Positions 15,162-52,081 are shown, numbered from the stretch's first letter. The stretch is 64,000 nt of DNA from an uncultured Rhodobacter sp. (GCA_964637875.1 CAZWXK010000008.1:4222-68221), one strand, 5' to 3'. A program made the numbers and translations. The notes: generated from the sequence alone by a model not told the origin.

Positions 15162-16085
15162 TCAAAGACTCTCGAGTGCGCGTTCCTGCGCCACTTTGCG
15201 CACCCCGGCCTGCCCGTGCCAGAAACCGTTGGCAAAGGGCGCCGGCAGGTTCAACGAGTCCAGCTGTTTCTGCCCCTCTTCCGGGGTGATCTTGCCGTCC
15301 AGCGCATCGCGCCAGATCCTGGCGACCGCCACCATGTCGACATTTTGGGGAACCAGCCGGAAATGGGTGATTCCCATCTCGCGCAGCTGTGGCAGCTCGG
15401 CCATCAGGTTGACATATTTGTGTGAAAGCGTCTGGATGCCGTTGATGGCCAGAAAATCGTTGCCGTCAAGTGTGCGCAGCGGCATGCCATCGGGGTCCAG
15501 TTCGCAGACGAACTGGCAGTTGTCCTTGATCCGGCCATGGGCGCGGGCGTGATAGCAGCGCGCGGAAAGCGCCAGCTGGGCACGACCAAAGACCTGAACC
15601 TCGATGCCGACCTCCAGCTTTCGTGCCGCCCTGGCCATGACCGCGACCGCGCTTCCGGGCAGTTCGGTCGGCATGGCGAAATGGGTTGCCCCCCTGGCAG
15701 CGAGGTAGCGCATGGTTTCCTCGTTGTAGACATTCATCAGGGGGCCGACTCGAAATGCCCGCCCATCGAGATGCCAGAGAGCGGACGCATCGTTTATCTC
15801 GATCTCGTGCTCGTCCATTTCGCAGAATCCGGCCATCATCCTGCGTTCGCGTTTCAGCATGATCTCGGCCAGGGACGAAAATACGACCCTCTTGCCTGCT
15901 TTTGTCAGCCGCTGGGCAACATCGTCGTAATATTGCTCGAAAAAGGGCGTGCGCTTTGAACAGACGACTTCGCCGACATGAACCACATCGACAGGTGCCT
16001 CTTCGGCAATGCGGGCATAGAATTCCAGTTTCTTTTCGGCCGGCCAGTGAAACAGGATCGGCCCCATCGTCAGTACGGGTTTCAT
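15162..16085 (-). CDS. ubiV: U32-family protein UbiV (O2-independent ubiquinone hydroxylation)
   Basis: Collinear with E. coli YhbV/UbiV: LGPILFHWP, GEVVCSKR and LSARCYHARAHGRIKDNCQFVC (Fe-S Cys cluster). It follows ubiU. Confidence 0.8.
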   Translation of the reverse strand: MKPVLTMGPILFHWPAEKKLEFYARIAEEAPVDVVHVGEVVCSKRTPFFEQYYDDVAQRLTKAGKRVVFSSLAEIMLKRERRMMAGFCEMDEHEIEINDASALWHLDGRAFRVGPLMNVYNEETMRYLAARGATHFAMPTELPGSAVAVMARAARKLEVGIEVQVFGRAQLALSARCYHARAHGRIKDNCQFVCELDPDGMPLRTLDGNDFLAINGIQTLSHKYVNLMAELPQLREMGITHFRLVPQNVDMVAVARIWRDALDGKITPEEGQKQLDSLNLPAPFANGFWHGQAGVRKVAQERALESL

Positions 16086-16089
16086 TTCA

Positions 16090-17100
16090 TCACCGCCATG
16101 TCTTGCTCTTGAACGCGCCCTCGGTCTGTTTCTGGCCTTCGGTCAGGGCGATGAGATCGGCAAGGGGTGGTTCCTCGCCGGCCATGATCGCATCGACCGC
16201 CTTGCGAAAGGACGACACCACATTGCGCACATAGGCGCGCGAGCGCTGACGCCCCTCGATCTTGAGCGCATTTACCCCCGCAGCCATCAGCTCGGGCAGC
16301 AGGGATGACAGGTTCAGGCTGATCGGTTCCTCGAACGCGTAATAGCCCTTGTCGCGCGCAGGCGTCAGATAGCGGCCCTTGCAGATGGTGGGATAGCCGG
16401 CGGTCTCGGAACAGGAAAAGCAGTCGATGGTGAAATCGCCCAGCCGGGTCGAAAGATTGCCATCATCGTCGCGGCGATATTCCACATCGGCGGCAGGCGA
16501 ACATACGCCGTCGTAATTGGTGGACTGTCCCGTGATGTAGTTGGTCAGCGAGCAACGCCCCTCGACCATCAGGCCGTGGTTGCCAAAGATGAAGGTTTCG
16601 ATTTCGCAGGGGATCTCGGCCGCGATTTCCCTGATTTCCGAAACGGTCAGGATGCGTGGCAGCACCACGCGCCTGACGCCGAATTCGCGGCAATACCAGC
16701 GTATCGCCTCGGGGCTCGAGGCCGCGGCCTGCACCGACAGGTGCAGCCGGATGTCGGGGTGATTGCGGGCGATATAGTCTGCCACGCCAATATCGGCGAC
16801 GATAAAGGCATCGACACCAAGGCGCGCGCCCAGATCGACCGCATCACGCCACAGATCGACCTTGCCCGCGGGCGGAAAGGTGTTGATTGCCAGCAGCACC
16901 TTGGTGCCGTTTTCGTGGGCGTGCCCAATCCCCCGGCCCAGCTCGTCAGGGGTAAAGTTGAGGCCCGGAAAGTTGCGTGCATTGGTTGCGTTCTGAAAGC
17001 CGCAATAGACGGCGTCGGCGCCCGCCTCGACGGCGGTACGCATGGCGGCGGGGGTGCCGGCCGGGCAGACCAGTTCTGGCGCTCTCATGCTTGTCCTCAT
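16090..17100 (-). CDS. ubiU: U32-family protein UbiU (O2-independent ubiquinone hydroxylation)
   Basis: Strong collinearity with E. coli YhbU/UbiU: ELVCPAG, GADAVYCG, NARNF.GLNF, GYPTICKGRY and LKIEGRQRS. Confidence 0.85.
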   Translation of the reverse strand: MRTSMRAPELVCPAGTPAAMRTAVEAGADAVYCGFQNATNARNFPGLNFTPDELGRGIGHAHENGTKVLLAINTFPPAGKVDLWRDAVDLGARLGVDAFIVADIGVADYIARNHPDIRLHLSVQAAASSPEAIRWYCREFGVRRVVLPRILTVSEIREIAAEIPCEIETFIFGNHGLMVEGRCSLTNYITGQSTNYDGVCSPAADVEYRRDDDGNLSTRLGDFTIDCFSCSETAGYPTICKGRYLTPARDKGYYAFEEPISLNLSSLLPELMAAGVNALKIEGRQRSRAYVRNVVSSFRKAVDAIMAGEEPPLADLIALTEGQKQTEGAFKSKTWR

Positions 17101-17621
17101 GATTTCTTGCGTGCGCTGGCGCGTCTGAGTGCCGAAAGCATGGCGCGGCCGGGCGGGCCGAACATGTCGGCGACGGACTGCGCGATCGAACCATCGACAT
17201 CATCCAGCGCATTGCGCAGGCAGACCACGGCCTCGGTGTTGCCGGTGATGGTGAGATCGCGCGAAAAGAACAGGGCATCGCCATCGGCATCGCCATCGAC
17301 CAGCCCCAGAAGATCGAGAAACCCACCGCGGATTTCGGCGTCGGCCGCGGGTTTGCGCCTGCGTGCGACGGCCCGGAACAACAGGTCCTCGGGGTCGGGA
17401 CGCAGATGCAGCACAAAGGGCAGGCCGATCACGTCGATGATGAAATCTGCCGACTTGTGCGGCCCCAGCCTGTTGAACATGTCGGGATTCTGCATCGCGA
17501 CCCGCGTCACGATCCTTTTCAGGATCGGTTGCAGCAGAAACAGAGGCAGCGGCGGCACCGGCAGGAATGGGCGCGCCCTGGTATCGTTGCCAGTGGGCGG
17601 ATAGGGAGTCACGGGTTCCAT
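17097..17621 (-). CDS. ubiT: SCP2-domain lipid-binding protein UbiT
   Basis: 174 aa, the same length and layout as E. coli YhbT/UbiT, with an SCP2 core (LTITGNTEAVVCLRNALD). ATGA overlap with the ubiU start. Confidence 0.75.
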   Translation of the reverse strand: MEPVTPYPPTGNDTRARPFLPVPPLPLFLLQPILKRIVTRVAMQNPDMFNRLGPHKSADFIIDVIGLPFVLHLRPDPEDLLFRAVARRRKPAADAEIRGGFLDLLGLVDGDADGDALFFSRDLTITGNTEAVVCLRNALDDVDGSIAQSVADMFGPPGRAMLSALRRASARKKS

Positions 17622-23465: not shown

Positions 23466-25016
23466 ATGGAAATGTCCACCAGGCGCCAACGCCTGACGAC
23501 CGTATCGGCCGGGCTGCTGGGCGGCGCAATCATGGCGCTGGGACAAGAGCCCGTTTCCTGGCCGCTGGCGATGCTTGCCGGGTTCCTGTTTCTGGGTGAT
23601 CGTTTCCTGCGGGTGCGGGCCACGCGCGGCGCGGCCCTGTTGGGCTGGAGCGCAGGCCTGGGATATTTCGCGGCCTCGCTGTACTGGATCGTCGAACCCT
23701 TTCTGGTCGAGCCCGAGGTCTATGGCTGGATGGCGCCTTTCGCTCTGATCCTGCTGGCCGGCGGTCTTGCCCTGTTCTGGGCCGGGGCCTTTGCGGTTGC
23801 CTTTTTGCCGCGCCGATCACGCGCGCGCGCGCAGCTCGCAGGGGTCGCGGAGGCGCCGAACATGCAGCGACGGCGTGTGCTGCTGTTGCCGTTTGTGCTG
23901 ACCCTTGCCGAGATGCTGCGCGGCACGATCTTTACCGGGTTTCCATGGGGTCTGCCTGCCTATGGGTGGATCAATACGCCGATCGCGCAGAACCTGTCCT
24001 GGGCCGGGCCCTATGGTCTGACGCTGATTACGCTGCTGCTTGGCGTCCTGCCCCTTGTCTGGCGCCATGCACGGGTCGGCCTGGTCCTGTCTGCCGGTGC
24101 TCTTGGCGGGCTCTGGCTGTGGGGCGATGCGCGTCTGGCGCCGGCATTGCCCGCGCGCATGCCCGAGTTGCGGTTGCGTCTGATCCAGCCCAATGCTCCG
24201 CAGGCCGAGAAATGGGATCCCCAAAAGATGCCGATCTTTTTCCGTCGCCAGCTGAACCTGACGGCGGCCGACCCGTCCTTTGCTCCCGATCTGGTGATCT
24301 GGCCGGAAACGGCGGTGCCTTTCTGGCTGGGCCAGAGGCCGGGCCTGCAGCGGCTGGTTGCGGATTCGGCCCCGCCCGGGGCAACGGTGATCATTGGCGC
24401 CCGCCGAGCCGAGGGGCGGCGGTTCTTCAACGCGCTGGCGGTTCTTGGGCGGGATGGTCAGGTCGCGCAGCGCTATGACAAGGCCCATCTTGTGCCTTTC
24501 GGGGAATATGTCCCCTTCGGGGCCTTTTTCGCCCGTTTTGGAATTACCGGCCTTGCGGCCGAAGACGGCGGCGGGTTCAGTGCGGGGCCCGGCGCGGTGC
24601 TGCTGGATCTTGGCAAGGCGGGCAAGGTGCGCCCTCTGATCTGTTACGAGGCAATCTTTCCGGCCGAGATTGCCCGCGGGGTCGCCCGTCCCGACTGGAT
24701 GCTCCAGATTACCAACGACGCCTGGTTCGGCAGGAACGCCGGCCCCCGTCAGCATTTCGCGCAGGCCCGGGCCCGGGCAATCGAACAGGGCCTGCCGATG
24801 GTGCGGGTGGCCAATACCGGCATAACCGCCGTCATTGGCCCCAGGGGAAGGATTCGCGCACAGCTCCCCCCCCGTGTTGCGGGCAAGCTGGATTCCTTGC
24901 TGCCATCGGCGCTGCCGCCGACGCCCTATTCACGTATGGGTGATGCGCCGGTTCTTTTCTTCGTGCTGCTTGGCGGTTTCCTGCTGGCCTGGCGGCGGCG
25001 AAAAATTAATCATTGA
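23466..25016 (+). CDS. lnt: Apolipoprotein N-acyltransferase
   Basis: Multi-TM N-terminus plus a carbon-nitrogen hydrolase domain (LIQPN..., KAHLVPFGEYVP, LICYEAIFP). Confidence 0.9.
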   Translation: MEMSTRRQRLTTVSAGLLGGAIMALGQEPVSWPLAMLAGFLFLGDRFLRVRATRGAALLGWSAGLGYFAASLYWIVEPFLVEPEVYGWMAPFALILLAGGLALFWAGAFAVAFLPRRSRARAQLAGVAEAPNMQRRRVLLLPFVLTLAEMLRGTIFTGFPWGLPAYGWINTPIAQNLSWAGPYGLTLITLLLGVLPLVWRHARVGLVLSAGALGGLWLWGDARLAPALPARMPELRLRLIQPNAPQAEKWDPQKMPIFFRRQLNLTAADPSFAPDLVIWPETAVPFWLGQRPGLQRLVADSAPPGATVIIGARRAEGRRFFNALAVLGRDGQVAQRYDKAHLVPFGEYVPFGAFFARFGITGLAAEDGGGFSAGPGAVLLDLGKAGKVRPLICYEAIFPAEIARGVARPDWMLQITNDAWFGRNAGPRQHFAQARARAIEQGLPMVRVANTGITAVIGPRGRIRAQLPPRVAGKLDSLLPSALPPTPYSRMGDAPVLFFVLLGGFLLAWRRRKINH

Positions 25017-26350: not shown

Positions 26351-27091
26351 ATGCGACAGATGAGCAAGGACAAGGCCCCCGGCAAATCACATTCGGGCGC
26401 GCCCTGGCGCAACTTTTACGGCCGTCGCCACGGCAAGACCCTGCGCAACAGCCAGCGGGAATATCTGGAATCCGACCTGCGCCGCCTGGCGGTTCCAGAT
26501 GTCGGCTGGGACGAAAACCCCGAACGGCGCAAGATCGACCTGACGCAGCTGTTTGGCGATGGGCGGCCGGTCTGGCTGGAAATCGGCTTTGGCGGGGGCG
26601 AGCACATGGTGCATCAGGCGGCCCTGCACCCCGAGGTCGGGCTGATCGGCTGCGAGCCCTTCATCAACGGCGTCGCCATGCTGCTGGGCAAGATCCGCGA
26701 GGCCGGTGTCGAAAACCTTGCCATCCATCCGGGCGATGTGCGCGACCTGTTCGATGTGCTGCCCGATGCGTCGATCGCGCGGGCCTTTCTGCTGTATCCC
26801 GACCCCTGGCCGAAAAAGCGCCACCATCGGCGCCGTTTCGTGAACCCGGAATTCCTGGATCCGCTGGCCCGCGTCATGCAGCCGGGCGCCATCCTGCGCG
26901 TTGCCACCGACATCGAGGATTATGTTCGCCAGACGCTGGAACAATTGACCCGCCACCCCGATTTCGAATGGCTTGCCGAAGGGCCTGATGACTGGCGCAA
27001 ACCTTGGGAAGACTGGGAATCGACCCGCTATGAAAACAAGGCCCTGCGCGAGGGGCGCAGACCGCATTACCTGACCTTCAGGCGTCGGTAA
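26351..27091 (+). CDS. trmB: tRNA (guanine-N7)-methyltransferase
   Basis: NFYGRRHGK, LEIGFGGGEH and YPDPWPKKRHHRRR motifs. The start could be at 26351 or 26360. Confidence 0.9.
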   Translation: MRQMSKDKAPGKSHSGAPWRNFYGRRHGKTLRNSQREYLESDLRRLAVPDVGWDENPERRKIDLTQLFGDGRPVWLEIGFGGGEHMVHQAALHPEVGLIGCEPFINGVAMLLGKIREAGVENLAIHPGDVRDLFDVLPDASIARAFLLYPDPWPKKRHHRRRFVNPEFLDPLARVMQPGAILRVATDIEDYVRQTLEQLTRHPDFEWLAEGPDDWRKPWEDWESTRYENKALREGRRPHYLTFRRR

Positions 27092-27755
27092 TCGCGCTGT
27101 CGTCGTCCGGCCGGGGTGCAAGCAGCCGACGGAACAGATCCATGGCCTTGTCATTCAGCGCGCGTCGCTGGCGATCGTCCATCTGGTCCCAGTGCTCAAG
27201 AAACCAGCGATCCATCGACATGGCCAGCGACATCACCATGTCGATGATCAGGCCCTCGGGCAGGTCCCGGCGCAACAGGCCCAGCCGCTGCCCCCTGTCG
27301 ATCAGATCCTTCAGCCAGTCGGTCGATATCTGCATGATCTCTTGCGTCAGCATGCGCTCGTCCGGGTTTTCGTGGCAGCGATAGAACATCCGCCCGACGG
27401 TGATCATTTGGGGCGAGCTTTCGGCCATTTTCGACAGCTCATCCGCCATGGTGGCGATCATCGGCCAGAAATTGTCGCGGTTCAGCCGCGCAAGATCAAA
27501 GGAAGAGCGCGCCGAAAGAATGGGCTGCATGGCGTCATTCAGGATCTGCATGAAAAGATCCTGCTTGTTTCTGAAATAGTGATAGAAGGACGATTTTCTC
27601 ATCCCTACCGCATCGATGATGCGATTGAGAGAGGCGCCACGAAAGCCGTGGGTTGCAAATTCTGCCGCACCTGTCTGAAAGATCCGGTTGCGTCTTTCAT
27701 CCGGGAGCCTGTGTGAAGCGTGATCGTTCATGTTCTTGACAGGGGTGGGCGCCAT
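27078..27755 (-). CDS. TetR/AcrR family transcriptional regulator
   Basis: N-terminal HTH (RIFQTGAAEFATHGFRGASLNRIIDAVGMRKSSFYHYFRNK). It is divergent from the ABC/LolA-like operon. An alternative start exists at 27731. Confidence 0.85.
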   Translation of the reverse strand: MAPTPVKNMNDHASHRLPDERRNRIFQTGAAEFATHGFRGASLNRIIDAVGMRKSSFYHYFRNKQDLFMQILNDAMQPILSARSSFDLARLNRDNFWPMIATMADELSKMAESSPQMITVGRMFYRCHENPDERMLTQEIMQISTDWLKDLIDRGQRLGLLRRDLPEGLIIDMVMSLAMSMDRWFLEHWDQMDDRQRRALNDKAMDLFRRLLAPRPDDDSAITDA

Positions 27756-27769
27756 GGCTACCTATGGTG

Positions 27770-27787
27770 CTGGACCGACTGGTCCAG
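27770..27787. promoter_or_regulatory. Candidate TetR operator CTGGACC-gact-GGTCCAG just downstream of a TTGACA-N17-TACCTA promoter
   Basis: 7-bp inverted arms read directly from the sequence. TTGACA is at 27736-27741 and TACCTA at 27759-27764, both facing the + operon. Confidence 0.45.
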
Positions 27788-27879
27788 TAAATTCCTTAAC
27801 CTACCCGTTCGGGTTTGGCAAGTTGGCAAGGGTCTGCCGCGCGCCCATCGCGCGGGCAGGAGGGGAGAGAGGGATCGGC

Positions 27880-28677
27880 ATGTCTCGCATTTTCACGGAC
27901 CGGGAAAGGCCCGATATCCGGCGCAGCATGTCGATCGCCATTCTGGCAATGCTGGCACTGGTTGTCATTGCGCTGCCGCAGGCGTCGGCCCAGGATGCGC
28001 GCACGATCCTGAAAAAGGCCTATGACAACTGGCGCGCCGACAGTTCCTTTTCCGTGGTCGAGATGACCATCAAGCGCAAGGGGAGCCTGCGCAAGCTGAC
28101 CATGAAAAGCTGGACAAAGGGCACGGACAAGGCCCTGGTACGTTTCGTTGCGCCTGCGCGCGACGCCGGCAATGCGACCTTGCAGATCGGCAATTCCACC
28201 TATGTATACAACCCCCGGATCAATCAGGTGATCAAGCTGCCGGCCAGCGCCATGTCGCAATCATGGATGGGCTCGGATTTTTCCTATAACGATCTGGCGC
28301 GTTCGCAGAGGGTGCTCGACGACTATACCCACAAGCTGATCGGAACCAGGATCATCAAGGGACAAAAGATCTATGTGATCGAATCCATTCCCAAAAGGGG
28401 CAGGCCCATCGTGTGGGGCAAGCAGATCATCATGGTGCGCGGTGACGGTGTGTTGTACCGGGTCGAATATTACGACCAGCTGGGCAAGCGGGTGCGTGTG
28501 ATGACGGCCGACAAGATCGGTCGTATCGGCGGGCGGCTTTATCCGATCGTGATGACCATGCGACGCGATGACAAGCCTGGGCAATACACCCGCATTGCCA
28601 CACGAACCGCCCAGTTCAACATTCCGATCCCGGCCTATGTCTTTACCCGCTCGAACCTGCAGAACCCGAGGGATTGA
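27880..28677 (+). CDS. Periplasmic LolA-like outer-membrane lipoprotein-sorting protein
   Basis: ATG with AGGAGGGGAGAGAGGG upstream. Signal peptide SIAILAMLALVVIALPQASAQ. All-beta sequence pattern typical of LolA_like proteins (ALVRFVAPARDAGNATL..., YVYNPRINQV). Confidence 0.7.
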   Translation: MSRIFTDRERPDIRRSMSIAILAMLALVVIALPQASAQDARTILKKAYDNWRADSSFSVVEMTIKRKGSLRKLTMKSWTKGTDKALVRFVAPARDAGNATLQIGNSTYVYNPRINQVIKLPASAMSQSWMGSDFSYNDLARSQRVLDDYTHKLIGTRIIKGQKIYVIESIPKRGRPIVWGKQIIMVRGDGVLYRVEYYDQLGKRVRVMTADKIGRIGGRLYPIVMTMRRDDKPGQYTRIATRTAQFNIPIPAYVFTRSNLQNPRD

Positions 28678-28680
28678 GGC

Positions 28681-29898
28681 ATGATTGCCTCGCTTGCATG
28701 GCGAAACATCTGGCGACAGCCGACCCGCACCGGCCTCAGCCTGACGGGAATGGCATTTGCCTCGATGCTGCTGGTTTTCATGCTGTCGTTTCAGTTCGGC
28801 TCGTATGATTCGATGAAGGCGAACATTTTGCGGATCATCGACGGCTATGGCCAGATTCAGCCGCCCGGATACAAGGACGACCCGGAAATCACCAAGGTCA
28901 TTGGCGACCCCTCGGGCCTGATTGCCGAGCTGGAGTCACTTCCGCAGGTCACCACCGCCAGCGCGCGGGCCAATGGCTATGTCCTGCTGGCCAATGGCGA
29001 GCGCAGCTTTGCGGCCGCCGTCGCGGGGGTCGATCCGGCCCGAGAGGTGCATATCACGCGGATTGCCAGCCTGATCAAACAGGGCCGCCCCCTGAGGGCA
29101 GATGATGACGCTGCAATCGTGCTGGGCGAGGCGCTTGCGCGGAACCTGCGGCTGAAGGTGGGTGACCGGGTGACCTTGCTGGGAACGGCGATGGATGGAT
29201 CGGTTGCCGCCGACGTGCTGAAGGTCGTGGGCATTTTCCGCACCGGCATCACCGAGATCGATCGTCAGATCGCCCACATGCCACTGAATCGCTTTCGCGA
29301 GACTTTCGTCATGGATGGGGCCGTCAACGAGGTCGCCATCATCGGCCGGGACCTGCGCGACATCATCAATGCCGAGCCGCGCCTGCGGGCAATAGCCGCC
29401 CGCCACAATGCCGTCTATCTGAACTGGGGGCAGTTGCAGCCCGCGGTCAAGCAGGCGATCACACTGGACATGACCACGGCATCCCTGATGTATGGCACGC
29501 TGGTCATCGTGGTTGTATTCATCATCCTGAACACGTTGTACATGTCGGTTCTGGAACGCACCCGTGAATTCGGGGTGCTTCTGGCCGTCGGCATGAAGCC
29601 GGGGCAGATCGGGCGGATGGTCTGGATGGAGATCATCTTTCTTTCCCTGGTCGGCACCGGAATCGGCATTGTCCTTGGCATGGCGCTTGCCTGGTATTTC
29701 GGACGCATCGGCATCACCTTCGAGGGGATGCAGGAGATTTTCTCGCAATGGGGCTTGCCGCCGCGCATCTATCCACGGATGACGCCGTTTCGGGTGCTGG
29801 CCGGCCCCGGTGCAATCATTCTGCTGATTGCGCTTTTGGGGATCATCCCCTATCGGCGGGTGCTTGGGCTGGAGCCGGTAAAGGCGATGAACGCATGA
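28681..29898 (+). CDS. FtsX/MacB-type ABC transporter permease (LolC/E-like) 1
   Basis: TM1, then a periplasmic domain of about 220 aa, then three C-terminal TM helices (FtsX fold). It starts 3 nt after the upstream gene. Confidence 0.8.
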   Translation: MIASLAWRNIWRQPTRTGLSLTGMAFASMLLVFMLSFQFGSYDSMKANILRIIDGYGQIQPPGYKDDPEITKVIGDPSGLIAELESLPQVTTASARANGYVLLANGERSFAAAVAGVDPAREVHITRIASLIKQGRPLRADDDAAIVLGEALARNLRLKVGDRVTLLGTAMDGSVAADVLKVVGIFRTGITEIDRQIAHMPLNRFRETFVMDGAVNEVAIIGRDLRDIINAEPRLRAIAARHNAVYLNWGQLQPAVKQAITLDMTTASLMYGTLVIVVVFIILNTLYMSVLERTREFGVLLAVGMKPGQIGRMVWMEIIFLSLVGTGIGIVLGMALAWYFGRIGITFEGMQEIFSQWGLPPRIYPRMTPFRVLAGPGAIILLIALLGIIPYRRVLGLEPVKAMNA

Positions 29899-31124
29899 TC
29901 AGCACGTTGCGCATATTTGCCCCTCTGGCGTGGCGCAATCTGTGGCGTAATCCGCGCCGCACGCTGATTACGTTGATCGTGGTATCGGTTGGTCTGTGGT
30001 CGGTGCTGGCCTTCAATTCCTTTCTCAACGCCTGGACGCAGGCCAGCAAGGACACCACCCTTCAACTGTTGCTCGGGCAAGGGCAGATTCATGCCGCAGG
30101 CTACATGGATGATCCGGGGGTGGAAAAGCTCATGCCCCCGCCCGACCCCGCCCTGCGCGCCGCGCTGGATGACCCGCGCATAGCATCATGGGCGATGCGG
30201 CTGGTCGTGCCCGCCGTCGTGCAGAGCGAATACAAGACCCTTCCGGTCATGATCGTCGGGGTCGATCCGAAATCCGAACGCAGGGTCTCGTCGATCCCGG
30301 GCAAGGTTGTCGCCGGACGATACCTGTCCGGAGTGGGCGACGACGGTGTGGTGATCGGCCAGCATCTGGCAGATCGCCTGAAAACGGGGCTTGGCCGACG
30401 GGTGATTCTGATGTCGCAGGGTAGCGACGGCAAGCTCGCCGAGCAGAGCTTTGACGTTGTCGGCCTGTATGATGCCGACCAGCAGACCGAGGATTACTAT
30501 GTCTTCACCGGTCGCAAGGCCGAGCAGGCCTTTCTGGGCCTGAGCGGACAGATCGCCGAGATCGTGTTCACCATCCCGAACGAGGCCGATCTGGAGCCGG
30601 TCATTGCCAGCCTGCGGAAAGCGGCGCCAGGGCTGGATGTGCGGTCATGGAAAAGGTTGTCCCCGTTTCTGGCCGCAACCGATGCCTTCATGGGCGGTTT
30701 CATCTATATCTGGCTGGCGGTCGTGTTCACGCTGATGGCCATCGGCATCGTCAATACCCAGTTGATGGCCGTTTTCGAGCGCACCCATGAATTCGGCCTG
30801 TTGCAGGCGCTGGGCATGAAGCCACGGCTGATTCTGGTCATGGTGACAATGGAATCCACGCTGCTGATCGGCCTTGGCGTGGCTCTGGGCGCCGTCATCG
30901 CGGCTGCAACGATCTGGGCCACGGCCGACGGGATCGACCTGTCAGCCTTTGCCAAGGGGCTGGAACTGGTGCAGGGCGGGCAGATTCTGTTTCCTGAATT
31001 CGATGGTCGCAGCTTTGTCCTGTTTTCGCTGGCGATCTGGTTTCTCGGAATCATCGTGGCATTGTGGCCGGCATGGCGCGCATCACGCGCCAGCCCGGTC
31101 GAAGCCATGCGGCAGACGACCTAG
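29895..31124 (+). CDS. FtsX/MacB-type ABC transporter permease (LolC/E-like) 2
   Basis: Paralogous architecture to permease 1 (LAWRNLWRNPRRT..., C-terminal FtsX helices). ATGA overlap with permease 1. Confidence 0.8.
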   Translation: MISTLRIFAPLAWRNLWRNPRRTLITLIVVSVGLWSVLAFNSFLNAWTQASKDTTLQLLLGQGQIHAAGYMDDPGVEKLMPPPDPALRAALDDPRIASWAMRLVVPAVVQSEYKTLPVMIVGVDPKSERRVSSIPGKVVAGRYLSGVGDDGVVIGQHLADRLKTGLGRRVILMSQGSDGKLAEQSFDVVGLYDADQQTEDYYVFTGRKAEQAFLGLSGQIAEIVFTIPNEADLEPVIASLRKAAPGLDVRSWKRLSPFLAATDAFMGGFIYIWLAVVFTLMAIGIVNTQLMAVFERTHEFGLLQALGMKPRLILVMVTMESTLLIGLGVALGAVIAAATIWATADGIDLSAFAKGLELVQGGQILFPEFDGRSFVLFSLAIWFLGIIVALWPAWRASRASPVEAMRQTT

Positions 31125-31138
31125 AAAGGATGCGGACG

Positions 31139-31831
31139 ATGACTGAACCGATCGTGAGTTGCCGGGCTGTCAACAAGATTTTCGGAAGCGGCGAGTTGCA
31201 GGTCCATGCCCTGCGCGATGTCGATCTGGATATCATGCCCGGGGATTTCGCGACACTTGCAGGGCCCAGCGGGTCAGGCAAGACCACCCTGCTGAACATG
31301 ATCGGGGCACTCGACACGCCAACCAGTGGCGAGGTGGTGATCGACGGTCGGTCGCTCGACGGGCTGGGAAAATCGGAATTGTCGGATCTGCGTCTGAACA
31401 AGGTTGGTTTTGTCTTTCAGGCCTACAATCTGGTCCCGGTATTGTCGGCCCGCGAGAATATCGAATTTGTCCTTGAGCTTCATGGCATGCCGGCGGCCGA
31501 GCGGCGCAAACGGGCGCGTGACATCCTGCGCGAGGTTGGCCTCGAAGGGCTGGAGAATCGTCGCCCGGCCCAGCTCTCGGGTGGGCAGCAGCAGAGGGTT
31601 GCGGTGGCCCGCGCTCTGGTTGCGCGCCCCAGTATCGTTCTGGCAGACGAGCCGACGGCCAATCTGGATTCGAAAACAACGGAAGAGCTGGTTCAACTGA
31701 TGTATCGTCTGAATCGCGAGTTCGGGACGACATTCGTGATCGGCACCCATGATCCGCGGGTCATGGAGCACAGCAAACGTCATATCGAGTTGCTGGACGG
31801 AAGGATCGCAAGCGATGTACGCGGGACGTGA
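31139..31831 (+). CDS. ABC transporter ATP-binding protein (LolD/MacB-NBD-like)
   Basis: Walker [10 protein letters not shown], signature LSGGQQQRV and Walker [15 protein letters not shown] lies 8 nt before the ATG. Confidence 0.9.
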
Positions 31832-33095
31832 ACGCAACCTTCCTGCCGCGGTATCGCGGTATTGGCGGCAGGGGATGCTGGCGGCACTGCTGGCGATGGC
31901 CCTCATGCCCGGTCATGCGGTGGCTCAGGGGATCCGGCTGCGGACGGAATTTTCATCCAGCCGGGCCTGGGCGGATACAGCCAGCCTGGATGCCGCGCTG
32001 GGCTTTGCCTCGCGCCAGACGGCCGGCGCCGGCGCCAGGCTGATTTACGAAAAAACCCTTGGCGATGTCAGGATCGAGTTTCAGGGCGTCCTCACCGCGT
32101 ATAGCGGCGATGACATAGCCTATCGCGCGGCCCTGGCCGCCCGCTTTCCTCCTGCTCCGCCGACGACGCTGTTCGATCTGGGCCAGATCTGGCAGCACGA
32201 TGCGACGACACGGATCGAAGGGGTGATCGATCGTCTGTCATTCGCCTGGGTCACGCCCCATCTGGTGCTGAAGATCGGCCGACAGGCGATCACCTGGGGC
32301 AGTGGAATAGTCTTTCATCCCGCCGACATCGTGGCGCCTTTTCCTCCCAATGCGGTGGATACCAGCTACAAGCCGGGCGCGGACATGGTCTATGGCCAGT
32401 ATCTGTTTGACAGCGGCGCCGATGTTCAGGCCATCGCCCTGCCACGCCCACTGGTGCCGGGTGGTCCGGTTGCCTTTGGCAATTCGACCTATGCCGTACG
32501 GGGAAAGACCTCGATCGGGGCGCTGGATCTGTCGGCAATGTTTGCCCGTGATCGTGGCGACAGTGTTGCAAGCATGGGACTGGCGGGCGCATTGGGCGGG
32601 GCCAGCTGGAATGCGCAATATGTCGGATGGAAACTGGCCAGCGGCGCCGAGCGGCCCAGCTGGCTGATCAACATCTCAAGTTTCGGCACCCTGGCCGGGC
32701 GTAACATGTCGTGGTTTGCCGAAATCTATCACAACGGTTTCGGCGTCGGGTCCGGGGTGCCGCTTTCGCTGTTGCCGCCCGAGCTGTCGAAGCGGACCGC
32801 AACAGGGCAGGTTTTCGTTCTGGGCCGTGATTTCCTGGCCCTGGGGGGGCGGGTCGAGCTTGGCCCCGATATCTCGGTATCCCCTGCTGCGCTGGTCAGC
32901 CTGAGTGATGGCAGCGCGTTGCTCAGCCTGCGCGCCGATTATTCACTGGGCGACAATACCGATATCCTGCTTGGCTATGATCGCCCCCTTGGCCGAAACG
33001 GGACCGAGTTCGGTGGGCGGGAAACGACGCCCGGTTCAGGGATTTATGCACGGCCGGCTGCGCGGATGATGCTGAAACTTGTGCGTTATTTCTGA
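31815..33095 (+). CDS. Predicted outer-membrane beta-barrel protein (DUF1302/alginate-export-like)
   Basis: Signal peptide ending MPGHAVAQ, alternating-hydrophobic strands, a GRQAITWG motif and a C-terminal ...KLVRYF (terminal aromatic residue typical of BAM substrates). It overlaps the ATPase stop by 17 nt. Confidence 0.6.
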   Translation: MYAGRERNLPAAVSRYWRQGMLAALLAMALMPGHAVAQGIRLRTEFSSSRAWADTASLDAALGFASRQTAGAGARLIYEKTLGDVRIEFQGVLTAYSGDDIAYRAALAARFPPAPPTTLFDLGQIWQHDATTRIEGVIDRLSFAWVTPHLVLKIGRQAITWGSGIVFHPADIVAPFPPNAVDTSYKPGADMVYGQYLFDSGADVQAIALPRPLVPGGPVAFGNSTYAVRGKTSIGALDLSAMFARDRGDSVASMGLAGALGGASWNAQYVGWKLASGAERPSWLINISSFGTLAGRNMSWFAEIYHNGFGVGSGVPLSLLPPELSKRTATGQVFVLGRDFLALGGRVELGPDISVSPAALVSLSDGSALLSLRADYSLGDNTDILLGYDRPLGRNGTEFGGRETTPGSGIYARPAARMMLKLVRYF

Positions 33096-33160: not shown

Positions 33161-33472
33161 ATGAGAACCGCGATCTTTTCCAGCCTTGTTCTGGTCACAA
33201 TGGCAGGTTCGGCGCCTGCCAGCGACCTGATCCGCAAGGCCTGCCTGAAATCTGCCCGCCCGGCTGTTACCGCCAGGCTGTGTACCTGCATCCAGCGGGT
33301 CGCGGATCAACGGCTCGAACGAGGTGAACAACGCCTGGCCGCCAGTTTTTTTCTCAACCCGCAAAAGGCACAGCGAATTCGCCAGTCGGCCAATGCACGC
33401 AATGCGGTGTTCTGGCAACGCTATCGGCAGTGGGGTGATGCTGCGGAAAAGGCCTGTGGCGATCGGAAATGA
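33161..33472 (+). CDS. Hypothetical small secreted Cys-containing protein
   Basis: Signal peptide MRTAIFSSLVLVTMAGSAPA. It has four Cys residues. There is no recognisable family and the SD is weak. Confidence 0.45.
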   Translation: MRTAIFSSLVLVTMAGSAPASDLIRKACLKSARPAVTARLCTCIQRVADQRLERGEQRLAASFFLNPQKAQRIRQSANARNAVFWQRYRQWGDAAEKACGDRK

Positions 33473-45091: not shown

Positions 45092-46297
45092 CTATTGGCA
45101 CCCCCTGTGCCGGGCGCCCTGGCAGGCCAGCGAGCGCAGACTCCACAAGGTCTTGATATAGGCGACGATGTCGCGGATCTCGTCATCCGAAAGGCGCATG
45201 CTGAAAGCGACCATCCGCCGGTTCCGCGGAGAGCCCTTGCTGATGGTTGCAAAGATTCCCCGGTCGCTGTGGTGCCAGGCGTGGGCGTCGTTGTTCAGGG
45301 CCGGTGCCTTGAAGCCGTATTTGTCCTTTGCGCTGGGGTTGCCCGGAGCTTCGCCGATCCCGTTTACTCCGTGACATGCCTGGCAATTCTGCTGAAACAG
45401 CTTCTTGCCATTGGCGATATGCTCGGGGGTGGCCCAGTCGCTGCCCTCGAAGCTGATCCATTTGCGTCCGCCATCTCGGCTCATCAGGATGGCGCCTGTA
45501 TCGAAGGTTGCGAAAACTTCGTCCGGGCGCTGAGGGTTTTGCGCCAGATCGACCATGAACCGATCTTCGAAGCCCTCTGCAAGCAGGGTCCATTTCAGAT
45601 CCGGTTCCCGCGCGCCGAGCAGCCCCCGGGAATAGGCAAAGGCCAGCAGACGGCCGTCGGCAAGGCCGGTGATCATGGTGATCGGCTGATTCCCGGCCCC
45701 GGCATCACGCCATGTTGCGCCATTGTCGTCGCTGACCATGAGTCCGGTCATGGTTCCCGCATAGATTCTGTCGGCGATGGTGGGAGAGGGGGCGACCGCA
45801 AAGGTTTTGTCCGGGGTTGCGGCAAGCGTGCGCCAGGTTTTGCCCGTGTCATCGCTGACCATGATCTTGCTGGCAAGCCCGACCATGCGACCGGGTTTCA
45901 TGCGGCTCAGGGACAAGGCACCGACGATGACGGGTTTCGCGCCCTCGACCGGTGCCCAGGTGATGCCCCCATCAGTCGATTCCATCAGATTGCCTGGCGC
46001 GCCCTTGCTGTCGACAGTCGAGGCAAAGAGGTGATTCGGGTCGTCAGGATCGGTTGCCAGCGAAACCACGGCTGCCTTGAGGGAGGGAACAAGTTCCGAA
46101 AGCCCGTCCGGCCGTGCCCTGAGCAGACCGTATTGCGTGGCGATCAGAACGGTGCCGCCGTTGGTCGCGGGGTCGACCGCGATGCCATATATCTTTTTGA
46201 TGCTGTCGGTCGAGCCGGTTTGGCGCTGCTGCGCCGAGGCCGGGAGCAGCGATGTCAACACGATCAGGGCGGCGGCAAGGATGCGCAGAGGCTTCAT
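45092..46297 (-). CDS. Periplasmic BNR/Asp-box beta-propeller (Ycf48/sialidase-like) fused to a c-type cytochrome domain
   Basis: Signal peptide ILAAALIVLTSLLPASAQ. Four Asp-boxes (STDGGITW, SDDTGKTW, SDDNGATW, SRDGGRKW). C-terminal CQACH haem motif with a distal Met region (RRMVAFSMRLSDDEIRDIVAYIKTLW). Confidence 0.75.
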   Translation of the reverse strand: MKPLRILAAALIVLTSLLPASAQQRQTGSTDSIKKIYGIAVDPATNGGTVLIATQYGLLRARPDGLSELVPSLKAAVVSLATDPDDPNHLFASTVDSKGAPGNLMESTDGGITWAPVEGAKPVIVGALSLSRMKPGRMVGLASKIMVSDDTGKTWRTLAATPDKTFAVAPSPTIADRIYAGTMTGLMVSDDNGATWRDAGAGNQPITMITGLADGRLLAFAYSRGLLGAREPDLKWTLLAEGFEDRFMVDLAQNPQRPDEVFATFDTGAILMSRDGGRKWISFEGSDWATPEHIANGKKLFQQNCQACHGVNGIGEAPGNPSAKDKYGFKAPALNNDAHAWHHSDRGIFATISKGSPRNRRMVAFSMRLSDDEIRDIVAYIKTLWSLRSLACQGARHRGCQ

Positions 46298-49792: not shown

Positions 49793-51895
49793 TCAGCGCA
49801 GCCTGACCAGCGCCGCCTTGCCATCAGAGAACCACGTTCCCTCGGGCAGCGCGTCGATCGGCCTTGGCGGCGCGATCCTGAGCGTGCCACGTTTCCCAAC
49901 CATGCCCGCGGCAGACAGATCATTGACCAGCAGCGCGCGCTCGGCGTCGACATCGGGTGCGATCAGGCGCGACAGGCCCCAGCCAAGACCCTTGTCGAAA
50001 CTTGCTGCCACCGTGAATATCCTTTCCCCGGATACGGTGTGAAAAGGGGTTTCCCAGATACGCGCATGGTGCCGTCGCCGGGTTGCCTGCCTTGCGGCCG
50101 TTCCCGGCCCGGTCCTGCGAAAGGCCAGATCATTGGGTCTGCCCTGCCAGAAAAAGGGTGCAACCGGCGCGTTTTCCCCGAAATTTCCCAGCCATCCGGC
50201 CAACACCGTCCGCCCCAGCGAAACGATTCCGGGCCTGGCCACTGCCACCCATCCCGCCCGGGCAAGGGCGGTTTCAAGTGCCTGCCGGTCGCGTGCCACC
50301 ACGATCACGTTGATGGGGCCGATCGTTCGGCCGGTCAAGGTTTCGGTGACACCCGCAAGCCGGCCGGTCGAGAACAGATTGCCGATATCGGCAACGGTCT
50401 CGGCCGGGGGCGGTGTGCGGGGCAGATTCAGCGTCTTGTCATAGGACAGCACGGTCCAGCCCGAGACCACGACAAGGCCGGCAGCAATCGGCAGGATAAT
50501 GCGCCGGCCAACAGCAGCGACCGCCTTTCCCGTCGTGGGGTGTGAATCCCGCCACCATTCGGCGATGCTGATTCCGACCACCAGCCACAGCGCACCGACA
50601 AGCCAGCCATTCAGGACATCGCTCAGGTAATGCTCGATCAGATATACCCGGCTGAGGCCCACCATGAATGCCAGGGTTGCCGCCAGCAGCGCCGCCGAAA
50701 TCGGCCCCAGGCGTTTCAGGCGCAGCGCGATATAAAACAGCATGCCATAGAATGCGATCGAAATGGCGGCATGGCCCGAGGGAAAGCTGCCCGAGGTTTC
50801 GACGAAATAGGCAAGTTCCGGGCGCGGACGGTCGAAAATCCGCTTGAGCAGCCAGACCGAGGCCAGGTTGCCCACGAGGGCGCTGCCCAGCCCCAGGGCC
50901 AGGTCGGCGCGGCGGCGCAGATACAACAGGCCCAGAACCGCCAGCAGCAGCGGTGTGACCACGCGCCAGTCGCCAAGGGCGGTGACATGGGCAAAGAACC
51001 TCAGCAGGGCCGGTGACCAGAAGGCATGGATCAGCTCGGCCAGGCGCATGTCGATCTGCACGACCCCGCGCGACATCAGGAAATCCAGCACCACACCCAG
51101 CCAGATCACGAAAATATAGATCATCACCAGCGCCAGCAAGGTTGCCGTCAGGCCGCCAAAGCGGTGCATGTCGAGCCGCGATCCGATCAGACCGGCAAGA
51201 CGGGGGTGGCGCGCGGCCCAGGCGCGAATGTCCGGGTTCTCGGCAACCGCGCCGATGATCGAACGGGTCACTGACAGGACAAATGGCAACAGGCGCTCAA
51301 TCCGGATGATCAGCCACCACAGCAGGGCAATGACTGCCGCCACCGCGGCCGCGAACAGGACCAGCCGTGTCGCAAACGGGCCCAGGCGCGTGATCACATC
51401 GCCCAGGAAATAGCCAAAGGCCACATGCCCGATGGCGTAGGGAACACCGCTGACGATGTTCCAGATCAGGAAACGTCTCCTCTCCATACCCGAAAGCGCG
51501 GCCGCCAGCGGTACAAGGCCCGACAATGGCCCCAGAAAGCGCCCGATCACCAGGGCCAGTCCGCCTCGGCGCGCAAAGAGCTGTTCGGCCCGGCGATAGC
51601 TGGGCGATTTCTCGGGTTGCCAGCGTTCCTTCAGATAGTGCCGGGCAAGGCGCCCGACCCAATAGCCCGCCTCGGCCCCCAGGATCGAGCCGATGGCGAC
51701 AAACCACAGCAGGTCGATGAAATCCAGCGCGCCCTGTTGAACCAGCATGCCGCCGGCATCGACGACCAGAGTGCCGGGAACAAAGGCCCCGGTGGCAAAG
51801 AATGCCTCGAGCATCGAGGCCGCACCTATGATCCAGTAGGACCACAGGCCAAGCGCCTCGAGCGAGGGCAGGATCTGGTCGAGACTGTGCGGCAT
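49793..51895 (-). CDS. Triple-domain membrane protein: DedA + PAP2 phosphatase + LssY-like C-terminal domain
   Basis: DedA region (FVPGTLVVDAGG..., LVIGRFLGPLSGLVP). PAP2 motifs KRIFDRPRP, SFPSGHA and SRVYLIEHYLSD. The C-terminus has RHHARIW and FTVAASFDKGL, typical of LssY_C. Confidence 0.75.
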   Translation of the reverse strand: MPHSLDQILPSLEALGLWSYWIIGAASMLEAFFATGAFVPGTLVVDAGGMLVQQGALDFIDLLWFVAIGSILGAEAGYWVGRLARHYLKERWQPEKSPSYRRAEQLFARRGGLALVIGRFLGPLSGLVPLAAALSGMERRRFLIWNIVSGVPYAIGHVAFGYFLGDVITRLGPFATRLVLFAAAVAAVIALLWWLIIRIERLLPFVLSVTRSIIGAVAENPDIRAWAARHPRLAGLIGSRLDMHRFGGLTATLLALVMIYIFVIWLGVVLDFLMSRGVVQIDMRLAELIHAFWSPALLRFFAHVTALGDWRVVTPLLLAVLGLLYLRRRADLALGLGSALVGNLASVWLLKRIFDRPRPELAYFVETSGSFPSGHAAISIAFYGMLFYIALRLKRLGPISAALLAATLAFMVGLSRVYLIEHYLSDVLNGWLVGALWLVVGISIAEWWRDSHPTTGKAVAAVGRRIILPIAAGLVVVSGWTVLSYDKTLNLPRTPPPAETVADIGNLFSTGRLAGVTETLTGRTIGPINVIVVARDRQALETALARAGWVAVARPGIVSLGRTVLAGWLGNFGENAPVAPFFWQGRPNDLAFRRTGPGTAARQATRRRHHARIWETPFHTVSGERIFTVAASFDKGLGWGLSRLIAPDVDAERALLVNDLSAAGMVGKRGTLRIAPPRPIDALPEGTWFSDGKAALVRLR

Positions 51896-52081
51896 CGCCC
51901 GGGCGGCTCCTGTGGGTGTGGGCGTTATCTTGGCGCGCCGACCTCTACGCTCGGCCGGCCACATGCCCTTACACCGTGCGGATACGGTTCTTCAACCGTC
52001 CAGGGGCACGGACCCGTTCCGACAGGGTGCCAGCTGCGCGAACGGCTGGGCCGCGCCGAAAACCACGCCCTTTTGCCGCGC

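Follow-up and report, generated by a model that had tools for sequence, protein, structure and literature searches.

A 64,000-nucleotide (nt) stretch of the genome of an uncultured Rhodobacter sp. (GCA_964637875.1 CAZWXK010000008.1:4222-68221), the whole of which is called the window below and to which coordinates refer unless another locus is named, carries a TetR-family repressor gene and, divergent from it, five genes for a LolA-superfamily carrier, two permeases and the ATPase of a transporter of the ATP-binding cassette (ABC) type, as well as a predicted outer-membrane beta-barrel. We found that the five genes form one module, which in our judgment serves, with a probability of roughly 0.55, to export a hydrophobic or amphiphilic molecule across the envelope as a self-contained unit that would function without an adaptor or a TolC duct. 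The evidence that carries this reading is what the analysis showed, namely the identities and fold classes of the parts, their strict co-conservation and order, the lack of an accompanying membrane-fusion protein (MFP) and TolC, the departure of the locus from the canonical Lol pathway, and an operator that is conserved in front of the genes. The locus is organized as follows (aa, amino acids).

27078-27755, minus strand: TetR-family repressor gene, 225 aa, divergent from the operon (PF00440 TetR_N, E 5.8e-12)
27770-27787, no strand assigned: predicted TetR operator, palindrome CTGGACC-GACT-GGTCCAG (core TGGACC-GACT-GGTCCA at 27771-27786), in the 124-nt intergenic region between the TetR and carrier genes; sequence of this candidate TetR target, TGGACCGACTGGTCCA
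27880-28677, plus strand: gene for the LolA-superfamily carrier, predicted to be soluble and periplasmic, 265 aa (PF17131, E 5.4e-50, 170 bits against a cut-off of 30)
28681-29898, plus strand: permease 1 of a type VII (MacB/FtsX-fold) ABC transporter, 405 aa (MacB_PCD PF12704 and FtsX PF02687)
29895-31124, plus strand: permease 2 of the type VII ABC transporter, a paralogue of permease 1, 409 aa (MacB_PCD PF12704 and FtsX PF02687)
31139-31831, plus strand: ABC ATPase, 230 aa (ABC_tran PF00005, E 1.3e-34), with Walker A, ABC signature and Walker B
31815-33095, plus strand: predicted 18-strand outer-membrane beta-barrel, 426 aa (no match in Pfam or NCBIfam)

The six open reading frames (ORFs) lie where an earlier note on this DNA had placed them and have the sizes and junctions that it gave. 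A direct reading of the five plus-strand genes shows that the carrier and permease 1 genes are 3 nt apart, that the permease genes overlap by 4 nt (ATGA), that 14 nt separate the permease 2 gene from the ATPase gene, and that the ATPase and barrel genes overlap by 17 nt, and the JGI and Logan gene calls for identical metagenome contigs agree with the window in all six products and in these junctions. The motifs of the nucleotide-binding domain, the GRQAITWG motif and the terminal VRYF that had been pointed out were found in the translations, and Pfam bore out the assigned domains, namely TetR_N, LolA_like, MacB_PCD plus FtsX in both permeases, and ABC_tran. The parts list of an envelope-spanning route, as the note had drawn it up, is correct.

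Relatives of the barrel were found in 327 of 185,579 species-representative genomes, and 79 loci were fetched. Gene order was counted in those 68 loci that extend at least 4.3 kb upstream of the barrel gene. In 67 of them the order carrier, permease 1, permease 2, ATPase, barrel is kept; the sole exception (L057) is an orphan barrel gene among unrelated neighbors. Hence the five plus-strand genes, whose co-conservation had been proposed as a check, are one co-inherited module. Its loci are distributed over Rhodobacterales, where barrel identity reaches 77%, Caulobacteraceae, Gammaproteobacteria (Woeseia, Sulfuricaulis) and Thermoanaerobaculia (Acidobacteriota), and further over Methylomirabilis, Desulfobacterales and Bdellovibrionales (barrel identity about 30%). 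When the 634 flanking ORFs were clustered, no family occurred in more than nine loci, and those nine all came from one clade. The flanking genes are thus unrelated while the five-gene order is kept, and the module therefore behaves as a cassette. A clue to the cargo was also sought among conserved neighbors and was ruled out, as the flanking families that recur (Asd, CcmE, CobQ, NnrU and Usp by Pfam) are housekeeping genes of that one clade.

A few loci depart from the simple arrangement. At L052 (632-9311 of that locus) the TetR gene, the carrier gene, the permease 1 gene and part of the permease 2 gene are tandemly repeated ahead of a complete module, and the operator is present twice, which reflects a tandem duplication or else a fault of the assembly. 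In a Bdellovibrionales metagenome-assembled genome (MAG; L071, 5550-7643), the ATPase and barrel genes are separated by an inserted gene for a 697-aa fusion of a class II aldolase with a short-chain dehydrogenase. A MAG labelled Acidimicrobiia (L061) has a complete module, outer-membrane barrel included. Acidimicrobiia are expected to have a single membrane, and the locus suggests either mis-binning or a taxonomic surprise.

No cultured host of the five-gene form was found among the 79 loci and the cluster members that were looked up, all of which are MAGs or metagenomes. A four-gene variant was found on plasmids of cultured hosts, Burkholderia thailandensis AW34-19p (p1; L080, 4643-11478) and Ralstonia pickettii (pRp12D0; L083, 4643-11538). 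It comprises a carrier, an ATPase, a double permease fused into one chain of 832 aa, and a barrel of 380 aa, which hhalign assigns to the window barrel family with a probability of 99.9% (E 6e-31). The variant is followed by a gene for a UbiB/ABC1-family kinase, and the plasmid island in which it sits also holds FtsH, YHS, P-type ATPase, cupredoxin, ppk2 and isoprenylcysteine methyltransferase genes; a gene for a VTT-domain protein lies near it too. A VTT (DedA-like) domain is present in the window as well, where it is fused with a PAP2 phosphatase and LssY_C in a 723-aa membrane protein (49793-51964, minus strand) whose gene adjoins one for a response regulator.

The product of the last gene had been taken for an outer-membrane barrel, and structure prediction supports this assignment. 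The AlphaFold2 (AF2) model, obtained with a 40-sequence alignment, is confident, with a predicted local distance difference test (pLDDT) score of 89.7 and a predicted TM-score (pTM) of 0.82, and 18 strands were counted in it. Of 120 close relatives, 118 end in Phe. According to the topology derived from the DSSP string, the periplasmic turns are all 2-5 residues in length and the long loops are extracellular. Conservation is highest in the long loop after strand 5 (residues ~155-190), which contains the GRQAITWG motif and in which the invariant residues include R156, Q157, W161, D171, K186 and G188. The nearest Foldseek neighbors are AlgE, which has 18 strands (query TM-score, TMq, of 0.51-0.54), and chitoporins (0.56), followed by the Occ channels. 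Membership in Alginate_exp was nevertheless rejected, as no member of the family matches PF13372 and the likeness to AlgE is one of fold (TM-score ~0.53).

The barrel profile had no match among Protein Data Bank (PDB) sequences even at E <= 10, the window barrel does not match PF06980 (DUF1302; gathering score 23.2 bits), and the relatives listed in the protein search carry no precomputed Pfam domain. Of 103 distant members, 31 match PF06980 below its threshold (best E 3.5e-5), and no other family recurs; in another PF06980 scan the best sub-threshold match reached 22.7 bits (E 5.8e-5). Those matches that were inspected always cover positions 152-228 of the hidden Markov model (HMM), which is the GRQ..WG region. 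Furthermore, hhalign matched 238 colinear columns of the barrel-family profile to a shallow DUF1302 profile of four Bacteroidota proteins (probability 73%, E 3e-5). In the modules the barrel gene always comes behind genes that include a carrier of the PF17131/DUF1329 type, and DUF1302 itself has been modelled with AlphaFold as an 18-strand barrel, likewise with AlgE and Occ channels as its neighbors, at a TM-score of ~0.55 (PMC13499233). The barrel is probably a distant DUF1302 relative that lies outside PF06980 as this family is modelled. Its own family is large: a profile search of 1.84 billion cluster representatives gave 2,758 clusters (50% identity) at E <= 1e-3 and 391 at E <= 1e-30.

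The sole Pfam match of the carrier is PF17131 (LolA_like, now TP_0789-like), some of its orthologs match PF07044 (DUF1329), and its best sequence match in the PDB is 9tp6, LolA3 of Porphyromonas gingivalis (E 6e-18). The protein has one hydrophobic segment, at its N terminus, and among 120 orthologs 118 have no lipobox and 102 no Cys at all; judged by these sequence features, the carrier is soluble and periplasmic. Its AF2 model (pLDDT 81.8) shows the open beta-barrel fold of these carriers and matches 4z48 (DUF1329 family), 9tp6, 3buu and 3bk5 with TM-scores of 0.81-0.82 and root-mean-square deviations of 2.6-3.1 Å. A comparison of TMq values shows that the model is much closer to the TP_0789/DUF1329 group (0.70-0.75) than to true LolA (0.43-0.47). 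By its modelled fold, the carrier is a member of the LolA superfamily's TP_0789/DUF1329 branch and is not LolA proper; the earlier note's description of a secreted LolA-like protein holds for the superfamily and needs correction as to the branch. In the crystal structure of P. gingivalis LolA3 a hydrophobic groove has been described (PMC13103446).

Each permease has four hydrophobic segments in its hydropathy profile and a loop of ~230 aa between transmembrane segments 1 and 2. With the MacB_PCD domain in this position, FtsX at the C terminus and an ABC ATPase encoded alongside, the proteins have the makeup of a type VII ABC transporter. Their nearest solved structures are LolF and LolE (E 6e-15 for permease 1 and 3e-13 for permease 2). 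The two permeases are 29.5% identical to each other, and in all 67 related modules the first permease gene matches permease 1 best and the second permease 2. The duplication therefore predates the spread of the module, and the heterodimer is one of its conserved features.

A comparison with the equivalog models shows that the scores are too low for a canonical Lol transporter. The lolCE model TIGR02212 has a cut-off of 362 bits, and the two permeases score 122.0 and 97.2 bits. The ATPase scores 231.2 bits with DevA (cut-off 296) and 223.1 bits with the LolD model TIGR02211 (cut-off 307.75), and is below both. These wide margins, together with the structural tier of the carrier, rule out a canonical LolCDE identity, and the locus is distinct from that pathway, as the earlier note had presumed. 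Neither another FtsX-type gene nor a canonical lol locus is present within the 64-kb window. The small share of species genomes with relatives (327 of 185,579) and their changing genomic surroundings are indirect evidence against a near-universal housekeeping system. The absence of an MFP and TolC at the module, which had also been claimed, was examined at the level of the loci, by jackhmmer searches for which MacA, AcrA and TolC of E. coli served as seeds and which covered every ORF in the window and in the 79 loci. No such pair is present in the window or in 78 of the 79 related loci; L073 alone has one, downstream of the module.

The palindrome between the TetR and carrier genes, which had been put forward as an operator candidate, is probably the TetR operator, judging from its sequence conservation. 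The core TGGACY-N4-RGTCCA occurs once in the window, where shuffled sequences give an expectation of 0.00. Among the 67 modules a TetR ortholog is divergent in 31, co-directional in 3 (Thermoanaerobaculia) and absent in 33, and TGGAC(C/T)-N4-(A/G)GTCCA is present in 30 of the 31 divergent intergenic regions. Its arms are conserved and its 4-nt spacer varies freely, and the motif therefore constitutes a clear phylogenetic footprint of an operator. It is kept even in Phenylobacterium, where TetR is 33% identical, and it is single in each ~17-kb locus with a divergent TetR gene save L052, where the duplicated module has two copies. Loci without TetR lack the motif upstream of the carrier gene, save L017, which has a CGGACC...GGTCCG variant, and L036/L037, whose contigs begin just upstream of the carrier. 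The TetR gene is thus present and divergent here, as described in the earlier note; it is not a defining part of the module, being an accessory of one sub-lineage that is found at 34 of the 67 loci. An inducible accessory function would agree with the conserved operator and with a distribution that is patchy and cassette-like. The ligand domain of TetR gave no clue to the inducer, as only the helix-turn-helix region aligns to characterized TetR proteins.

Two further observations concern the regulatory region. A GC-rich hairpin, CCGCGCG-CCCAT-CGCGCGG (27837-27855, plus strand), lies downstream of the operator and upstream of the carrier start codon, in what is presumably the 5' leader; a scan for sigma-70 promoters and terminators was uninformative. 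In the Silicimonas/Boseongicola clade (L017, L019, L020, L023, L024, L030 and L060), no TetR gene lies upstream and a CcmE-domain gene mostly precedes the carrier gene. A different TetR gene (TetR_C_3/YcdC type) and a flavodoxin-like gene are found just downstream of the barrel gene in this clade, and a single copy of the palindrome pattern occurs ~2.5-5 kb downstream of the barrel gene.

What follows on the direction of transport, on the two transfers, on what the barrel does and on the kind of cargo is inferred. The permease heterodimer would use ATP to extract a hydrophobic cargo from the inner membrane and would pass it to the soluble carrier of the TP_0789/DUF1329 branch. The carrier would then bring the cargo to the 18-strand DUF1302-like barrel, which would either insert it into the outer membrane or let it pass across. 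TetR bound at TGGACC-N4-GGTCCA would repress the operon, with the cargo or a related ligand presumably relieving the repression. Export is favored because, among solved structures, the extractors LolF and LolE come nearest to the permeases, and because the carrier is predicted to be soluble and superposes on a LolA3 with a hydrophobic groove (PMC13103446). It is further favored by the co-conservation of the five genes, by the recurrence of such parts in other layouts, by a confidently modelled barrel with a conserved loop and by the absence of an MFP/TolC pair. Relatives and precedents point the same way. AmeABCD, a cassette of DUF1302, DUF1329 and resistance-nodulation-division (RND) proteins, confers monoterpene tolerance and Nile Red efflux (PMC6394551); co-fitness links the genes for DUF1302, DUF1329, BNR and RND proteins in several bacteria (10.1101/072470); a DUF1302-DUF1329 complex is predicted by AlphaFold-Multimer with an interface pTM (ipTM) of 0.84 (PMC13499233; PMC10866462); and YbbAP-TesA of E. 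coli is a type VII ABC system that removes hydrophobic compounds from the inner membrane without an MFP (PMC12646458). By analogy with these systems, the cargo would most likely be a lipid-like metabolite or a membrane-partitioning xenobiotic; lipoproteins are a less likely cargo than a lipid or a small hydrophobic molecule. The inducible cargo suggested in the earlier note accordingly survives in part, since a hydrophobic metabolite, lipid or xenobiotic belongs to the favored reading by analogy, whereas nothing points to the specialized lipoprotein.

Several points weigh against the export reading. The direction of transport and the cargo come entirely from analogy. The homology of the barrel to DUF1302, on which part of this analogy is built, is moderately supported, by sub-threshold Pfam matches and the hhalign probability of 73%. 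Half of the modules have no adjacent TetR gene, and inducibility by the cargo is therefore not general. No experimental or computational description of the ABC-type module was found in the literature, and no member has been studied experimentally. Finally, DUF1302/DUF1329 proteins are needed by Pseudomonas putida for growth on Tween 20 and butyl stearate (10.1101/2020.07.04.188060), and this phenotype, like the response of the P. gingivalis LolA3 operon to iron or haem limitation (PMC10434189), could equally mean acquisition.

In an acquisition system the same parts would work in the retrograde direction: the barrel would admit a hydrophobic nutrient or metal chelate, the carrier would move it inward, and the ABC transporter would power its release or insertion at the inner membrane. 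Besides the failure of the P. putida mutants on both substrates (10.1101/2020.07.04.188060; PMC10866462), this explanation is in agreement with the 13- to 136-fold induction of the Bacteroidota LolA3/DUF1302 operon by iron limitation and its upregulation in a hemH mutant (PMC10434189; PMC13096392), and with the presence of substrate-specific uptake channels, Occ and chitoporin, among the fold neighbors of the barrel. However, the cluster contains no substrate-binding protein and no TonB-type energizer, and the divergent TetR gene gives it an efflux-style layout. A TetR gene divergent from a transporter operon is the classic efflux arrangement, and every characterized type VII ABC system is, to our knowledge, an exporter, an extractor or a mechanotransducer. 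The same is true of the HAE3 RND partners of the sister systems (HpnN, AmeD; PMC6394551). Acquisition is thus an unlikely explanation in our estimate.

A specialized route for lipoproteins or lipopeptides, to which the label 'shadow Lol pathway' of the earlier note would truly apply, would have the ABC pair extract a subset of acylated proteins, the carrier shuttle them, and the barrel replace LolB as an insertase or surface-exposure gate. The permeases do have LolC/E/F as their best family and structure matches and form a heterodimeric pair like LolC/LolE, the carrier has a LolA-superfamily fold, LolB is absent from Alphaproteobacteria (PMC9963962), and an in-silico counterpart has been proposed for Borrelia BBJ23-29 (PMC13078400). 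Yet all scores fall far short of the LolCE and LolD cut-offs, and the carrier is placed in the TP_0789/DUF1329 branch, where P. gingivalis LolA3 lacks the hallmark LolA Arg and LolB Leu and binds LolB weakly (PMC13103446). Deletion of LolA3 in Flavobacterium johnsoniae leaves gliding and the type IX secretion system unaffected (PMC11885536), and those relatives that have phenotypes concern terpenes or fatty esters and not lipoproteins. TetR control, patchiness and cassette mobility also suit an accessory small-molecule role better, and we regard a lipoprotein route as quite improbable. A device of the FtsEX-EnvC kind, in which ATP hydrolysis reshapes the LolA-like protein, which in turn gates or activates the barrel while no cargo passes through the ABC complex, is very improbable. 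The FtsX/MacB fold does work by mechanotransmission, with FtsEX and YbbAP acting on periplasmic partners (PMC12646458), and the module has no MFP or duct. Here, however, the partner has a lipid-carrier fold, for which a hydrophobic groove is described in 9tp6 (PMC13103446), rather than the fold of an enzyme activator, and the permease sequences are nearest to Lol extractors and not to FtsX.

The surroundings of the module in the window were also inspected. An lnt gene for apolipoprotein N-acyltransferase (LNT_N and CN_hydrolase; 23466-25016, plus strand) is found 2 kb upstream of the module, after ybeY and corC. A functional link between the two was rejected, as the lnt-metK-trmB and L28-aroA flanks are common to L001, L002, L004 and L015 only; the synteny is confined to the nearest relatives, and the proximity therefore looks coincidental. 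Directly 3' of the barrel gene lies an ORF of 103 aa (33161-33472, plus strand) with a signal-like N terminus and no Pfam match, which is not part of the module because it is conserved in L001 and L015 only. The G+C content is 0.58-0.59 over the TetR and carrier genes (27000-29000) compared with 0.61-0.67 in the flanks, which is compatible with acquisition of a cassette without being evidence for it. Elsewhere in the window (15162-17621, minus strand), three adjacent genes have the Pfam domains of two peptidase-U32 proteins and an SCP2 lipid-binding protein; the O2-independent ubiquinone genes ubiV, ubiU and ubiT have this arrangement, and the trio may correspond to them.

How hydrophobic small molecules, and lipids other than lipopolysaccharide, lipoproteins and phospholipids, arrive at and cross the outer membrane is poorly understood, and the module is a compact and very widespread candidate machine for this task, being present in at least 327 species genomes with a barrel family of at least 2,758 clusters at 50% identity. 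It defines a family of outer-membrane barrels that has no Pfam or NCBIfam model, and its sharply defined predicted TetR operator offers a way to the inducer and thence to the cargo. We also put forward, tentatively and at somewhat less than even odds, that the PF17131/DUF1329-type carrier and the 18-strand barrel of the DUF1302 superfamily are a conserved 'carrier-and-gate' pair which serves the envelope's outer half and which evolution has joined interchangeably to either of two unrelated inner-membrane motors, the type VII ABC transporter of this module or the HAE3 RND pump of the Ame and Bacteroidota systems. If this is true, the pair would represent a general periplasmic route for hydrophobic molecules that dispenses with MFP and TolC and differs from tripartite pumps as well as from the Lol, Lpt and Mla systems, and the ABC-coupled branch alone would account for thousands of protein clusters whose barrel lacks a family model. 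The module itself joins the monoterpene tolerance of AmeABCD, the Tween 20 phenotypes of DUF1302/DUF1329 mutants and the iron-induced LolA3 operon of P. gingivalis into one family, the members of which differ only in their motors.

Among known systems, the tripartite efflux pump MacAB-TolC likewise has a permease of the FtsX/MacB fold with a MacB_PCD domain. However, MacAB-TolC needs an MFP and the TolC duct, neither of which is found at this locus, where a separate polypeptide for the nucleotide-binding domain, heterodimeric permeases, a carrier and a barrel are present instead. The Lol pathway (LolCDE-LolA-LolB, or LolDF-LolA in Caulobacter) shares with the module a type VII extractor with two paralogous four-segment permeases and a separate ATPase, a soluble carrier of the LolA-superfamily fold, and the logic of extraction, carriage and delivery. 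Its acceptor, on the other hand, is the lipoprotein LolB, whereas the acceptor here would be an integral barrel, which is encoded by the last gene of the cluster; no gene for a lipoprotein acceptor was found in the cluster. Moreover, the Lol pathway is universal and essential, whereas the module is patchy, cassette-like and, in the window, probably under TetR repression. The partner of the canonical LolA in Caulobacter is LolF (PMC9963962), an arrangement that differs from the paralogous permease pair described here. Since the carrier falls in the TP_0789/DUF1329 branch and DUF1302 is probably a remote relative of the barrel, the closest kin of the module lie outside the Lol pathway. Thus, the extractor and carrier parts of the 'shadow Lol' label hold, whereas the kinship that it implies has to be sought in the DUF1302/DUF1329/RND cassettes and in a Bacteroidota operon.

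The DUF1302/DUF1329/RND cassette is genetically defined, and its mechanism is unsolved. The members compared here were AmeABCD of Castellaniella defragrans, Sama_1588-1591, and PP_0765/0766 with PP_2018/2019. As in the window, a periplasmic LolA-superfamily protein is encoded beside an 18-strand barrel and an inner-membrane exporter, with no MFP or TolC. The motor of the cassette is an HAE3 RND pump, in contrast to the heterodimeric type VII ABC transporter here, and the cassette includes a BNR (COG4447)/Ycf48-like protein as its third periplasmic part; neither an HAE3 RND transporter nor a BNR/Ycf48-like protein was found in the cluster. A gene for a 401-aa secreted protein with BNR/Ycf48-like repeats and a C-terminal cytochrome c does occur in the window (45092-46297, minus strand), 12 kb from the module and unlinked to it. 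DUF1329 proteins have ~450 aa compared with ~265 aa for the PF17131-type carrier, the AmeA barrel has ~600 aa (PMC6394551) compared with ~410 aa for the barrel here, which is below the PF06980 threshold, and the regulator is of the LuxR or AraC type and not TetR.

The second close relative was retrieved with the sequence of 9tp6. In four Bacteroidota genomes the genes for an MMPL protein, LolA3 (PF17131 and PF07044) and a DUF1302 barrel of 405-420 aa are adjacent, an arrangement that equals the PG1175-PG1181 operon of P. gingivalis, which is upregulated 13- to 136-fold under iron limitation and also in a hemH mutant (PMC10434189; PMC13096392). Porphyromonas macacae (L087) has a barrel whose 35.7 bits exceed the DUF1302 threshold, and next to these genes it has one for TetR and two for half-size ABC exporters. 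This is the one Bacteroidota locus in which an adjoining TetR gene was observed, and TetR has been reported for the P. gingivalis and Prevotella operons (PMC10434189). The operon shares with the module the PF17131 carrier, the short barrel gene directly after the carrier gene, TetR, and the lack of an MFP or TolC inside it. It differs in its inner-membrane partner, which is an MMPL/HAE3 RND protein plus two half exporters of the ABC_membrane type rather than FtsX-type permeases, in a barrel that passes the DUF1302 threshold, and in its response to iron or haem limitation (PMC10434189).

A very similar scheme of extraction, carriage and delivery has been published in silico for Borrelia BBJ23-BBJ29, in which a MacB-like ABC transporter is combined with a LolA-like protein and a barrel of the Omp85 type (PMC13078400). 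As far as its description goes, to which our comparison is limited, this system has an Omp85/TamA-like barrel, a homodimeric permease, tetratricopeptide-repeat (TPR) chaperones and no TetR. YbbAP-TesA also manages with a periplasmic partner and without an MFP or TolC, and its fused permease resembles that of the Burkholderia plasmid variant; its partner, however, is a lipid hydrolase and not a carrier, and no outer-membrane component is known. Given the DUF1302/DUF1329/RND cassette, the Bacteroidota operon and the Borrelia proposal, the concept is not unprecedented. The novelty lies in a Lol-like heterodimeric type VII ABC transporter that is combined with a carrier of the DUF1329 type and a barrel resembling DUF1302, as well as in the breadth of a barrel family that has escaped Pfam and NCBIfam. 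In summary, the module is the ABC-powered counterpart of the AmeABCD-type cassette and of the TetR-MMPL-LolA3-DUF1302 operon of Bacteroidota, and its four functions are met again in three layouts, driven by two kinds of motor.

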